A stretch of 32,000 nucleotides of DNA. It comes from Gemmata obscuriglobus (GTDB taxonomy: Bacteria; Planctomycetota; Planctomycetia; Gemmatales; Gemmataceae). The stretch is taken from NCBI RefSeq assembly GCF_008065095.1, contig NZ_CP042911.1, forward strand, positions 1,200,001 to 1,232,000, written 5' to 3'. Below are positions 21,222-27,226 of this stretch, piece after piece. The position numbers were made by a program, and so were the translations under genes. Under the pieces are notes generated by a model. That model was not told the DNA's origin and did not search any database. It saw nothing but the letters and a program-made list of their open reading frames with translations. Every line of letters starts with the position of its first letter. The stretch's first letter is position 1.

Positions 21222-21599
21222 ATGTTGTTCGCGCTGCTGTTCTTCCTGATCGCGTCGCACGCGCTCATGGACTACTCGTTGCAGAACGACACCATGGCTT
21301 CGTGCAAGTGTCGCCAGAGCACGCACCAGGTCGCGGTGTACGTGCCGTGGTACTACTGGCTCACCTCGCACGCGATGCTGCACGGGGTCGGGGTCGGGGT
21401 CGTGTTCCGGTGGATGGGGTTCGACTGGAACGTGGTCGCCGCGGTGGCCGTCGCCGAAACCGCGATCCACTGGGTCACCGACTACGGCAAGTGCGCGAAG
21501 TGGTACTCGCTCCACGCGGACCAGGCGATTCACATCACCTGCAAGCTCGTGTGGTGGGCGCTGGTGGCGGCCGAAGTCGTCAAGCCGGTCGGGGCGTAA
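21222..21599 (+). CDS. DUF3307-like small membrane protein
   Basis: 125 aa. Motifs SHALMDYSLQND, IHWVTDYGK and ADQAIHI match the H-x3-D-[FY]-x-x-Q / H-x3-D / DQ-x2-H pattern of DUF3307. The TAA stop (21597-21599) is one nucleotide before the ATG of the DevB-like gene. Confidence 0.65.
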   Translation: MLFALLFFLIASHALMDYSLQNDTMASCKCRQSTHQVAVYVPWYYWLTSHAMLHGVGVGVVFRWMGFDWNVVAAVAVAETAIHWVTDYGKCAKWYSLHADQAIHITCKLVWWALVAAEVVKPVGA

Positions 21600-21600
21600 C

Positions 21601-24606: not shown

Positions 24607-25824
24607 ATGCGTCCTCCACCCGTACCGCTGGCCTGGAAGAACCTGACGCACGACCGGGTGCGGTTCGGGCTGTTCGCCTCGGGCATCGGGTTCGCCGTGG
24701 TGCTGATGGGCGTGCAGTACGGGATCATGAACGCCATGCTGGACAGCAACACCGTGCTGATCGAGCGGCTCAAGGGGGACATCGTCCTCATCAACCCGAA
24801 CAAGGCGTCGCTGCTGTACCGCGAGGGGGTGTCGCGGCGGCGCATCGCCGAGGCGGAAGGCGTCGCCGGGGTGGCGAGCGCGCACCCGGTGTTCGTGGAG
24901 TATTCGACGGCCGCGCTCCGTCACACCGCCGACGATCCGGCCGCCCGCACCAGCACCCGACGGGTGCGGGTCATCGGCGTCGACCCGAACGCCGACCTGT
25001 TAAACCTCCCCGGGGTGTCGGCGGACGACTGGCGCGAACTCAACACGCCCGGGACCGCCCTTTATGACCGCGCGAGCCGGGCGCACCCGGACCGGACGCG
25101 GCACCCGGGCGAGTCGGTGTTCGGAAAGCTGGCCCCCGGAACGCTGACCGAACTGGCGGGCCGCGACGTTCGGCTGGTGGCCGGGTTCGAAATGGGGTTC
25201 GATTTCGGCACCGACGGCAGCGTGGTCGTCGGCGACCGCACCTTCTCGCAGTGGGTGCGCGAGCCGTACTACCCGATGAGCCCGCTGGCGGAGGCCGACA
25301 TCGGGGTGGTGAAGTTGCGGCCCGGGGCCGACCCCCGCGCGGTCAAGGCCGCGCTCCAGGCGAAGTTCGCTCCGGGCGGTGACGTGCTGGTCCTCACGCG
25401 CGCCGAGATGGTGTCGCGCGAGAAGGGGTTCTGGTGGAGCAACACGCCGATCGGGTTCGCGTTCGGCGCCGGCGTGCTGCTGGGGTTCGTGGTCGGGATG
25501 GTGATCTGCTACCAGATCCTCGCGAGCGACGTGGCCGACCACCTGCCCGAGTACGCGACGCTCAAGGCCATCGGTTACACGAACCGCTACCTGAGCTGGG
25601 TCGTGCTGCAGGAGGCGCTCGTCCTCGCGGTGGCCGGGTTCGCCCCCGGGATCGTGGTCACCTTCGGTACTTATCTTCTGCTCACCGACCTGACCGGTTT
25701 GCCGATGATACTGAGGCCGGCGCGGTTCGCTCTGGTGCTGGCGCTGACCGTCGTGATGTGCGCCGCGTCCGGGCTGCTCGCGGTGAGCAAGGTCAAGAAG
25801 GTGGACCCCGCCGATGTCTTCTGA
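24607..25824 (+). CDS. ABC exporter permease, FtsX/MacB-type, DevC-like (paralog 2)
   Basis: The N-terminus is MRPPPVPLAWKNLTHDRVRFGLFASGIGFAVVLM. The C-terminal module has LPEYATLKAIGYTNRYL and ends LLAVSKVKKVDPADVF. Also 405 aa and collinear with paralog 1. Confidence 0.87.
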   Translation: MRPPPVPLAWKNLTHDRVRFGLFASGIGFAVVLMGVQYGIMNAMLDSNTVLIERLKGDIVLINPNKASLLYREGVSRRRIAEAEGVAGVASAHPVFVEYSTAALRHTADDPAARTSTRRVRVIGVDPNADLLNLPGVSADDWRELNTPGTALYDRASRAHPDRTRHPGESVFGKLAPGTLTELAGRDVRLVAGFEMGFDFGTDGSVVVGDRTFSQWVREPYYPMSPLAEADIGVVKLRPGADPRAVKAALQAKFAPGGDVLVLTRAEMVSREKGFWWSNTPIGFAFGAGVLLGFVVGMVICYQILASDVADHLPEYATLKAIGYTNRYLSWVVLQEALVLAVAGFAPGIVVTFGTYLLLTDLTGLPMILRPARFALVLALTVVMCAASGLLAVSKVKKVDPADVF

Positions 25825-27226
25825 GCCGCGCGAGAACGGCCCCCCACGCCCCGGTTCCTTCTCTCCAGAGAGGGAGAGCGGGAACCGCCTCCCACCTCCC
25901 GGTCAACCGGTGCTCCGCATCCGCGGGGTGAACCACTACTTCGGTTCCGGTGACACCCGCACGCAGGTGCTCTTCGACAACAACCTCGAAGTGATGCCGG
26001 GCGAACTCGTCATCATGAGCGGACCGAGCGGGTCCGGCAAAACCACCATTCTGACCCTCATCGGCGGGCTGCGCACCCTCCAGGAGGGCGAAATCGAGGT
26101 CTGGGACGCCGACCGCGGCGGGTACCGCACGCTCCAGGGCGTTCCGGAGCCCGAACTGGTTCAGGTGCGGCGGCTCATCGGGTTCATCTTCCAGCGCCAC
26201 AACCTGTTCGACTCGCTCACGGCGGTTCAGAACATCCGGATGGCCCAGCAGCTCAAAGAACGCGCCACCGACCCCGGTGCGGACGCCCGTGACGTACTCA
26301 CGTACCTGCTGCTCGGCGAGAAGGACCTGGCGGGCAAAGATCAGAAGTCGCGGTTCGACTACAAACCTGCACAACTTTCGGGCGGGCAGCGGCAGCGCGT
26401 GGCCATCGCCCGCGCGCTCATCAACCGTCCCAAACTGGTACTAGCGGACGAACCGACCGCCGCACTCGACGCGAACAGTGGTCTCGCGGTGGTCACGCTG
26501 GTGCAGGAGCTGGCGCGCGCCCGGCCGGAAGCCGACCTCATGAAACTCGTGCGGTCGGCGGAGGAGGCGGGCGAGAACGGGCGCCTCGCGGAATGGCAGG
26601 TGCCGCTCCTGAAGCGGGTCGTCGCCGAGCACGGGACGACGAGCCTCATCGTGACGCACGACGCGCGCATCATGAACCTCGCCGACCGGATCGTTCACAT
26701 GGAGCGGGGGCGGATCGAGTCGAACGTGGTGGTCGCGGAGCGGCTGTTCGTGCGCGAGGGGCTGCGGCAAAGCCCGGCGTTCGCCGCCGTGCTGCCCGAG
26801 GAGCAGGAGAAGCTTGCCGATTCCGTACTCATCGGCGTTCACCCGGGCGAGGACGTGCGCCCCGATCACCTCGCCCGAAGTCCCGGACGAGTCGAAGTAT
26901 ACGAACCGGGACAGTTCATCGTCCGGCAGGGGGAAGCGGTCAACGAAGAGAGCAAGTTCTACCTGATCCGGCGCGGAACGGTCGAGGTGCTTCGCGACGT
27001 GGACGGTGCGGTTCAGAAGCTGACCGAGTTGGGCGCGGGGCGCTACTTCGGGGAGGTGGCGTTCCTGCTCGACCAGCCGCGCAACGCGAGCGTCCGCACG
27101 CTGACACGCGTCGAAGTGTACACCGTCAGCCGAACCGCGTTCGACCGGTTCCAGTCGGTGAGCCGCCCGTTCATCGAGCGCGTGCTGGCCAACTTTCGTG
27201 CGGGTGACGGGTCACCGCGAACGTAA
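25814..27226 (+). CDS. ABC transporter ATP-binding protein (DevA/MacB-NBD type) fused to a C-terminal cyclic-nucleotide-binding (CAP-effector) domain
   Basis: ATG 25814 overlaps the devC2 stop by 11 nt. Walker A is GPSGSGKTT, Q-loop region IGFIFQ, signature LSGGQRQRVAIARAL, Walker B LVLADEPTAALD, H-loop LIVTHD. The C-terminal ~155 aa contain EVYEPGQFIVRQGE...FYLIRRGTVEV...LGAGRYFGEVAFLLDQPRNASVRT, a cNMP-binding beta-roll with phosphate-binding-cassette pattern. Confidence 0.88.
   Translation: MSSEPRENGPPRPGSFSPERESGNRLPPPGQPVLRIRGVNHYFGSGDTRTQVLFDNNLEVMPGELVIMSGPSGSGKTTILTLIGGLRTLQEGEIEVWDADRGGYRTLQGVPEPELVQVRRLIGFIFQRHNLFDSLTAVQNIRMAQQLKERATDPGADARDVLTYLLLGEKDLAGKDQKSRFDYKPAQLSGGQRQRVAIARALINRPKLVLADEPTAALDANSGLAVVTLVQELARARPEADLMKLVRSAEEAGENGRLAEWQVPLLKRVVAEHGTTSLIVTHDARIMNLADRIVHMERGRIESNVVVAERLFVREGLRQSPAFAAVLPEEQEKLADSVLIGVHPGEDVRPDHLARSPGRVEVYEPGQFIVRQGEAVNEESKFYLIRRGTVEVLRDVDGAVQKLTELGAGRYFGEVAFLLDQPRNASVRTLTRVEVYTVSRTAFDRFQSVSRPFIERVLANFRAGDGSPRT

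Follow-up and report, generated by a model that had tools for sequence, protein, structure and literature searches.

The locus at positions 21222-27226 (plus strand) of the 32,000-nt stretch of the Gemmata obscuriglobus genome analysed here (contig NZ_CP042911.1, hereafter the window) encodes a small DUF3307 membrane protein, a DevB-family membrane-fusion protein, two DevC/FtsX permeases and a DevA-family ATP-binding cassette (ABC) ATPase with a C-terminal cyclic-nucleotide-binding (CNB) domain. Together, these proteins probably form a tripartite type VII ABC exporter of the DevBCA subfamily, with a heterodimeric permease of the LolCDE kind and an ATPase that a cyclic nucleotide would regulate. 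Both the permease pair and the CNB fusion are ancient and have been inherited together; they characterise a widespread subfamily that spans several phyla, and DUF3307 is an addition of the Gemmataceae, tied to the membrane-fusion protein rather than to the whole pump. The locus is less exotic than an initial annotation of the window had suggested: the features that it singled out as atypical are the norm of the subfamily, and two large spacer hairpins and a downstream PilZ gene drop out of the system.

Gene content of the locus

The segment 19890-27226 encodes six proteins, including an upstream major facilitator superfamily (MFS) transporter, all of which exactly match annotated G. obscuriglobus proteins (QEG26263-26268). 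The public annotation names them, in order, MFS transporter, DUF3307, ABC exporter membrane fusion protein, FtsX-like permease, ABC transporter permease DevC and MacB/ATP-binding cassette protein; the labels 'MacB' and 'FtsX-like' mask a coherent subfamily, for which an NCBIfam search returned no dedicated model. The five genes, coordinates and domains listed in the initial annotation were all recovered as open reading frames (ORFs) and hidden Markov model (HMM) matches, the first permease scoring below the devC cut-off. The DUF3307 protein (21222-21599, +; 125 aa) matches PF11750 with 36 bits (cut-off 23). The DevB-family periplasmic adaptor (21601-22779, +), which has an N-terminal membrane anchor, covers TIGR02971 from end to end (1-327 of 327; 362 bits, cut-off 129) and also matches HlyD_3 and HlyD_D23.

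The adaptor gene is followed by a 325-nt spacer (spacer 1, 22780-23104), occupied by a long hairpin, and by the position-1 permease, DevC1. The ORF of the latter extends over 22940-24322; its homologues start at the ATG at 23105, which gives a protein of 405 aa (23105-24322, +) matching FtsX with 43 bits and MacB_PCD with 31 bits. Beyond a second spacer of 284 nt lies the position-2 permease, DevC2 (24607-25824, +; 405 aa), which exceeds the cut-off of the devC model TIGR01185 (303 bits, cut-off 290) and matches FtsX with 60 bits, its PF12704 (MacB_PCD) score of 26 bits being marginally under the gathering threshold of 27. In a pairwise comparison, the two permeases are 35% identical, and both combine a C-terminal FtsX-type (PF02687) domain with four transmembrane (TM) segments and a MacB-like periplasmic core between TM1 and TM2. 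The ATPase gene (25814-27226, +) yields matches to TIGR02982 (349 bits, cut-off 295.8), PF00005 (101 bits) and PF00027 (70 bits). With DevB, DevC2 and DevA all over their HMM cut-offs, the assignment of the core to the DevBCA/MacAB class stands.

The two tight junctions reported earlier can be read directly in the sequence. DUF3307 and DevB are separated by a 1-nt gap (TAA-c-ATG), and the ATPase ATG at 25814 overlaps the end of DevC2, with its stop codon at 25822-25824, by 11 nt. The overlap holds only if this ATG is accepted as the ATPase start, on which annotations differ: GenBank gives a protein of 470 aa (ATG 25814) and RefSeq one of 438 aa, starting 32 codons downstream. The long form is favoured because an LPPPGQP motif upstream of the RefSeq start is conserved in homologues. 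Within 25814-25909, the first ~20 residues of the ATPase are predicted to be disordered. A scan for sigma-70 promoters and intrinsic terminators was uninformative, with no promoters and with more terminators in shuffled than in real sequence. Transcription as one operon, as concluded in the initial annotation, is plausible but unproven; in several relatives the cluster is divided into two or three modules.

Conservation and modularity in Gemmataceae

Homologous loci were gathered by a metagenome contig scan with Gemmataceae-specific C-terminal motifs and by look-ups that took the fusion ATPase or DUF3307 as anchor. The ATPase-CNB fusion is represented by more than 100 protein clusters with 63-94% identity, all of them carrying both PF00005 and PF00027, from Gemmata, Frigoriglobus, Urbifossiella and uncultured Gemmataceae; the Frigoriglobus ATPase itself had no match in an exact look-up. 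The order DUF3307-DevB-DevC1-DevC2-DevA+CNB was found in at least 11 Gemmataceae-type loci, namely the window, L004/L005, L087, L089, L091, L096, L105, L108, L109, L112 and L115, with ATPases ~58-81% identical to that of the window over the whole protein or its C-terminal part, and uniqueness of the arrangement to one genome is thereby ruled out.

Other loci hold only parts of the set. DevC1-DevC2-DevA occurs by itself in Urbifossiella (L001), L107 and Gemmata algarum JC717 (L002), DevC2-DevA without an adjoining DevC1 in five loci (L095, L097, L102, L113 and L119), the ATPase alone in four (L003, L098, L099 and L101), and DUF3307-DevB, without permeases and ATPase, in L086. In G. algarum, accession numbers run consecutively through the MFS transporter, DUF3307 and DevB on one contig, and through DevC1, DevC2 and DevA on another. 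The arrangement is modular, with an MFS-DUF3307-DevB block and a DevC1-DevC2-DevA block that are separate in relatives. A candidate fusion of DUF3307 and DevB in JC717 was discarded: the gene upstream of DevC1, of 539 aa, is unrelated, and between the two lies a transposase-like remnant (L002 6789-7330).

The Urbifossiella limnaea locus (L001 722-7548; CP036273.1) has a feature of its own. A 970-aa protein encoded upstream of DevC1-DevC2-DevA+CNB, with a 4-nt overlap with DevC1, carries 4Fe-4S clusters on either side of a second cNMP_binding domain, and its gene in turn follows those of a NuoE/NuoF-like protein and a multihaem cytochrome. The arrangement resembles a redox module with a CNB domain of its own, at the place where Gemmata has DUF3307-DevB.

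Distribution beyond Gemmataceae and ancestry of the permeases

We scanned one genome per GTDB species, and the groups named here are those among the matches listed. Full-length ATPase-CNB proteins occur in Desulfobacter, Oleiharenicola, another member of the Opitutaceae, many Pirellulales/Planctomycetaceae and Alphaproteobacteria, including Stellaceae and Magnetospirillum. The tightly packed order DevB-permease-permease-ATPase+CNB recurs in loci of Desulfobacter, Oleiharenicola/Opitutaceae, Pirellulales and Alphaproteobacteria; some Pirellulales have the ATPase gene in divergent orientation to those of DevB and the permease pair. Seven of these ATPases have the Pfam domains ABC_tran and cNMP_binding, the CNB match scoring 65-87 bits, and the ATPase-CNB architecture is present in at least 41 of the best 150 representatives at a clustering level of 50% identity. 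Outside Gemmataceae the protein is of a short form (~385 aa), the Gemmataceae form having extra insertions in the ATPase domain and in the linker. In a few relatives (P0153, P0156, P0157 and P0178), two tandem CNB domains follow the ATPase domain. All-against-all clustering of the flanking ORFs identified no neighbour conserved across phyla and, within Gemmataceae, only the MFS transporter.

In cyanobacteria, the classical devBCA locus encodes a single permease and an ATPase that lacks CNB. The order devB-devC-devC-devA, again without CNB, was found in four loci of non-heterocystous cyanobacteria (Elainella, L034; Nodosilinea, L043; an uncultured cyanobacterium, L049; and Leptolyngbya, L075). 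In a neighbour-joining tree of 62 permeases, the position-1 proteins of CNB-type loci from several phyla, DevC1 among them, form one clade (bootstrap 94/100), and the position-2 proteins, including DevC2, form a separate clade beside or with the single cyanobacterial DevC. The duplication is old, since the permeases of the two positions form separate clades, and the tree indicates that the cyanobacterial doublets arose by a duplication independent of that in CNB-type loci. Pairwise distances among position-1 and among position-2 permeases correlate across 21 loci with r = 0.90, from which it follows that the two have been co-inherited.

These results change the standing of two features that the initial annotation had listed as departures from known exporters. 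The permease is indeed duplicated, with its copies in separate clades and the distance correlation agreeing with the proposed heterodimer; the duplication is the norm of the subfamily rather than a local oddity. Similarly, the CNB domain of the ATPase is present, and the fusion is the defining architecture of a multi-phylum subfamily.

The ATPase and its cyclic-nucleotide-binding domain

The TIGR02982 match covers residues 33-302 of the ATPase, with ~50 extra residues as insertions. The motifs GPSGSGKT, Q127, LSGGQRQR, LVLADE and H282 are intact and invariant in 21 homologues; judged from its sequence, the domain has the full catalytic set, comprising Walker A, Q-loop, signature motif, Walker B Glu and H-loop. 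In the AlphaFold2 (AF2) model, for which the predicted local distance difference test (pLDDT) is 88.5 and the predicted TM-score (pTM) is 0.83, the ABC domain spans approximately residues 34-306 and is followed by a complete CNB domain (~307-464) with helices, beta-roll and C-terminal helix. The structural neighbours of the ATPase domain are MacB, LolD, FtsE, YbbA and MJ0796, with TM-scores of 0.8-0.9; structure comparison found no PDB chain that spans both an ABC ATPase and a CNB domain.

By sequence, the CNB domain comes closest to the cyclic-nucleotide sites of PKG, PKA and SthK, and the alignment includes the FGE...PR.A cassette. Its phosphate-binding cassette, FGEVAFLLDQPRNAS (27047-27091, +), aligns with the cassettes of PKG and PKA, for example FGERALLYDEPRTAS. 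In 21 diverse fusion proteins, one cassette Gly is invariant and the cassette Arg is conserved in at least 90%. This conservation supports the view that the domain would bind a ligand, presumably a cyclic nucleotide.

The DUF3307 protein and the adaptor

The DUF3307 protein is 100% identical to GobsT_10030. Its AF2 model (pLDDT 95.8) consists of four long helices and had no match in the PDB at E < 1 in a Foldseek search, and a Pfam search at E <= 10 revealed no second family. Sixteen residues are invariant (H13, D17, Q21, K29, H50, H54, E79, H83, D87, K90, C91, D100, Q101, H104, C107 and K108), and the sets H13/D17, H50/H54, E79/H83/D87 and D100/H104/K108 are spaced i, i+4 on the four helices. 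Because invariant His, Asp and Glu residues are spaced in this manner, the protein may have a polar, possibly metal-binding core.

This DUF3307 subtype comprises 91 clusters of exclusively Gemmataceae-like sequences, and its profile had no match in any other locus fetched. The gene adjoins DevB in 12 of 13 loci, L086 included. The attachment of a DUF3307 protein to the exporter, as described in the initial annotation, is specific to Gemmataceae, and it concerns the membrane-fusion protein instead of the pump as a whole. DUF3307 is probably an accessory or enzymatic partner of that protein. The literature searched holds no functional account of the family, its only mention being in a phage genome; DUF3307 now gains a first consistent genomic context, beside the membrane-fusion protein.

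Proposed mechanism and alternative interpretations

The inner-membrane part of the system would be a type VII (MacB-fold) ABC machine of the DevBCA subfamily. In the model that we favour, DevC1 and DevC2, paralogues with four TM segments each, most likely pair as a heterodimer in the manner of LolC and LolE, and two copies of the one ATPase, DevA, would power it. Binding of cyclic AMP (cAMP) or cyclic GMP (cGMP) to the CNB domain would make dimerisation of the ATPase domains easier or harder and thereby act as an on-off switch for the pump. In MetN and MalK, the C-terminal domain can gate the closure of the ATPase domains, and the proposed switching would be comparable to the action of these regulatory domains. 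Membrane-anchored DevB would join the periplasmic domains of the permeases to an unlinked TolC-like outer-membrane duct, through which an amphiphilic substrate taken from the periplasm or the outer leaflet, by analogy a lipid, glycolipid or small peptide, would be expelled by mechanotransmission. In Gemmataceae, the four-helix membrane protein DUF3307, encoded before DevB and apparently translationally coupled to it, could serve as an accessory or substrate-processing partner of the adaptor, reminiscent of YknW and YknX, and the spacer repeats would at most modulate relative gene expression.

A more ambitious version of this model is possible, and we advance it only tentatively. It holds that DevB-DevC1-DevC2-DevA+CNB is an unrecognised multi-phylum class in which a cyclic nucleotide bound to the ATPase gates export through an obligate heterodimeric permease, and in which the DUF3307 protein of Gemmataceae is a hitherto unrecognised metallo-protein of the membrane, with a task in processing or loading the substrate. 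Direct control by a second messenger is so far uncharacterised for tripartite efflux or export pumps. If confirmed, a CNB domain on a MacB-type ATPase, present in planctomycetes, verrucomicrobia, sulfate reducers and alphaproteobacteria, would couple cAMP/cGMP signalling to envelope export, and the locus would offer a second natural example, besides LolCDE, of a presumably heterodimeric type VII permease.

Several observations weigh against the exporter model or parts of it. DevC1 scores 250 bits against TIGR01185 (devC), under the cut-off of 290, and is a diverged paralogue of DevC2, the one permease that qualifies. The two very stable spacer hairpins could break transcription, which places the single operon in doubt. 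No outer-membrane-factor domain was detected in the scanned large ORFs of the window, in agreement with the initial annotation, nor near the homologous cassettes. Several Gemmataceae-type loci show only DevC2+DevA or DevA (L095, L097, L098, L099, L102 and L113), so that the parts need not be co-transcribed and DevC2 could act as a homodimer. Finally, the cassette Arg is followed by Asn, where Ala, Ser or Thr is usual, and in HetC, another ABC exporter, the CNB domain has guanosine tetraphosphate (ppGpp) as an in vitro ligand (PMC10986499); on both counts the ligand of the CNB domain is uncertain.

The last point bears on the rival view that the CNB-fold domain senses another ligand, such as ppGpp or a metabolite, or is a mere structural dimerisation module. 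Besides the precedent of HetC, CRP/FNR-type folds accept varied effectors (PMC10986499), and the cassettes of a few family members, such as P0142 and P0143, are degenerate; yet the closest matches of the domain are genuine cyclic-nucleotide sites and the cassette Arg is retained in at least 90% of the family, so that we regard this view as somewhat unlikely. The loci with DevC2 and DevA and no nearby DevC1 would suit an arrangement in which DevC1 and DevC2 are separate homodimeric pumps with different substrate ranges that share one ATPase and one adaptor, as would the fact that classical cyanobacterial DevBCA runs on a single DevC, which groups with the DevC2 clade. Nevertheless, the permease pair has been co-inherited across phyla in a fixed gene order, which is the pattern of LolC/LolE, and DevC1 never occurred without DevC2 among the loci examined; two independent pumps accordingly appear unlikely. 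Even less credence is given to the possibility that the system is not a trans-envelope exporter at all, and is instead a Lol-like extractor or an FtsEX-like mechanotransducer in which ATP hydrolysis hands a substrate over to, or activates, a periplasmic partner. In its favour, LolCDE likewise joins a heterodimeric permease to a single ATPase, the structures nearest to the ATPase domain include LolD and FtsE, and no outer-membrane factor is encoded nearby. Against this, the cassette has kept, across phyla, a full-length DevB-family adaptor with an HlyD barrel-sandwich domain, the permeases match devC rather than LolC/E or FtsX-only models, and DevBCA ordinarily works with an outer-membrane factor encoded elsewhere, hgdD in Anabaena being an example (PMC8277102).

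Comparison with known systems

The exporter model fits the published background, because DevBCA-HgdD exports heterocyst glycolipids with its outer-membrane factor encoded elsewhere (PMC8277102), MacB works by mechanotransmission and LolCE is a heterodimer (PMC8277102, PMC5985334). The closest parallel is DevBCA-HgdD of Anabaena sp. PCC 7120, with which the Gemmata locus shares DevB-, DevC- and DevA-family proteins in the order B-C-A, DevB, DevA and DevC2 exceeding the NCBIfam cut-offs, and the lack of a linked outer-membrane factor. The cyanobacterial system, however, has one permease and an ATPase of ~230 aa without CNB, whereas that of Gemmata has two old permease paralogues and the CNB fusion, to which Gemmataceae add DUF3307 and the insertions in the ATPase domain; the Gemmata locus is also without a tie to heterocysts or known glycolipid genes.

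With MacAB-TolC, the locus has in common the FtsX 4-TM fold, the MacB periplasmic core domain, the adaptor and an ATPase domain with a TM-score of ~0.82 to the ABC domain of Escherichia coli MacB; mechanotransmission is presumed. MacB, however, is a homodimer with the ATPase fused to the permease, whereas here the ATPase is separate, bears a sensor domain and serves two permeases. LolCDE likewise pairs paralogous MacB-fold permeases, driven by a single kind of ATPase in two copies; LolD gives a TM-score of ~0.9, and the heterodimer in Gemmata is presumptive. Lol differs in having no membrane-fusion protein and in passing its substrate to LolA, whereas the Gemmata cassette has the DevB adaptor, and the LolC and LolE models had no match to the permeases at E < 0.01. 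In Bacillus YknWXYZ, YknW is an accessory membrane protein (PMC5985334), small and polytopic, that is co-transcribed with the adaptor YknX and acts on it, which is comparable to the pair DUF3307-DevB. YknW nonetheless belongs to another family, its system is that of a Gram-positive bacterium without an outer membrane, and the invariant His, Asp and Glu of DUF3307 suggest metal binding or catalysis.

Ligand-binding domains fused to an ABC component are also found in HetC, MetN and MalK. HetC, by contrast, is a type IV exporter with a peptidase, and its ppGpp-binding CNB domain is N-terminal; MetN and MalK are importer ATPases with regulatory domains of other folds. In the literature searched, we found no description of a CNB-fused DevA/MacB-type ATPase or of a two-permease form of DevBCA, and no paper that ties DevBCA or MacB to cyclic-nucleotide domains, Planctomycetes or DUF3307.

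Spacer hairpins and dispersed palindromes

The two large hairpins that the initial annotation counted among the features of the exporter are real. Spacer 1 folds with -208 kcal/mol (z -11.4 versus shuffled sequence) and has its core at 22917-23063, with perfect 30-nt arms at 22962-22991 and 23000-23029. Spacer 2 folds with -222 kcal/mol (z -21.8); its hairpin (24339-24582) has 84-nt arms, 98% complementary, and a 76-nt loop. They are best read as dispersed repeats resembling repetitive extragenic palindromes (REP) or miniature inverted-repeat transposable elements (MITE), that is, as variable insertions and not as components of the transporter. The case rests on a second copy of the spacer 1 core in another intergenic region of the window (12226-12373; 84-91% identical), on the DevC1-DevC2 spacer of L091, whose palindrome belongs to another family, with members at 5197-5537 and 28600-28762 of the window, and on the absence or shortness of the spacers in other loci. 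The spacer 1 element is missing from the corresponding place in relatives, and the permease genes of L001, L105 and L107 follow each other without a gap or with an overlap, as far as approximate estimates of the gene starts allow. The spacer 2 palindrome occurs once within the window and is partly kept in G. algarum JC717 (81% over 198 nt).

In 32 kb, the window contains at least seven long intergenic palindromes of several repeat families, among them, outside the locus, those at 5197-5537, 9682-9757, 12226-12373, 12441-12473, 14413-14529 and 28600-28762, which points to Gemmata genomes being rich in REP/MITE-like elements. The 5197/28600 family is present also in G. algarum (L002 18590-18800) and in the metagenome loci L091 and L121. 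As in REP, in bacterial interspersed mosaic elements (BIME) or in MITE, these are dispersed, imperfect long palindromes confined to intergenic spacers, including those inside operons; the families found here, for example that with the core GGCACAGACATTCCTGTCTGTGCC, differ in being Gemmata-specific, with copies counted within the window. The hairpins may influence mRNA stability or read-through. That they are dedicated regulatory RNAs of the operon, such as attenuators or riboswitch-like elements, is highly improbable. Their extreme stability, their position exactly in both long spacers, a T-rich tract after spacer 2 and the partial conservation in G. algarum would be in keeping with such a role, but the recurrence of the spacer 1 element, the other repeat family in L091, the abundance of such palindromes in the window and the short or absent spacers in L001, L105, L107 and all other phyla speak against it. 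An Rfam scan of 19000-29500 at E <= 1 produced only sub-threshold hairpin matches to microRNA models.

Neighbouring genes

With 354 bits against a cut-off of 320, the MFS transporter upstream of the locus (19890-21173, +), which is of the oxalate/formate-monocarboxylate type, matches NF049980 (L-lactate MFS transporter), and it also matches PF07690. In 7 of the 12 informative loci (the window, L087, L088, L089, L091, L096 and L109), its gene immediately precedes DUF3307, and in G. algarum it stays with DUF3307-DevB, so that the synteny spans a moderate evolutionary distance. On grounds of synteny, the functional link suggested in the initial annotation is possible for the DUF3307-DevB module. 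A similar link to PilZ was not supported. The membrane-anchored PilZ protein (28045-28578, 28045 being the probable start) has the canonical cyclic di-GMP-binding motifs RxxxR and DxSxxG (RRAATRR at 28273 and DRSTGG at 28366), and it follows the ATPase only in the two closest relatives, L002 and L089; it was accordingly dropped as a member of the system.

Immediately downstream of the ATPase, 555 nt within 27227-27800 are 89% identical to G. algarum JC717. The stretch includes a minus-strand ORF (27321-27554; 77 aa), which has no Pfam match, a C-terminal half that is possibly ribbon-helix-helix-like and a counterpart in a 65-aa gene call of JC717, and it may encode a small regulator or RNA.

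Upstream of the MFS transporter, two large GT4-family glycosyltransferases are encoded on the minus strand (12492-14015 and 14506-17091), and 17144-19768 encodes a PcRGLX-like protein with a rhamnogalacturonan-lyase fold; this polysaccharide-related neighbourhood (12492-19768) is not conserved beside the exporter in other loci. Farther upstream, at 3278-4618, the window encodes a prolipoprotein diacylglyceryl transferase (Lgt) with a PDZ domain inserted at residues 196-242, which is an unusual combination.

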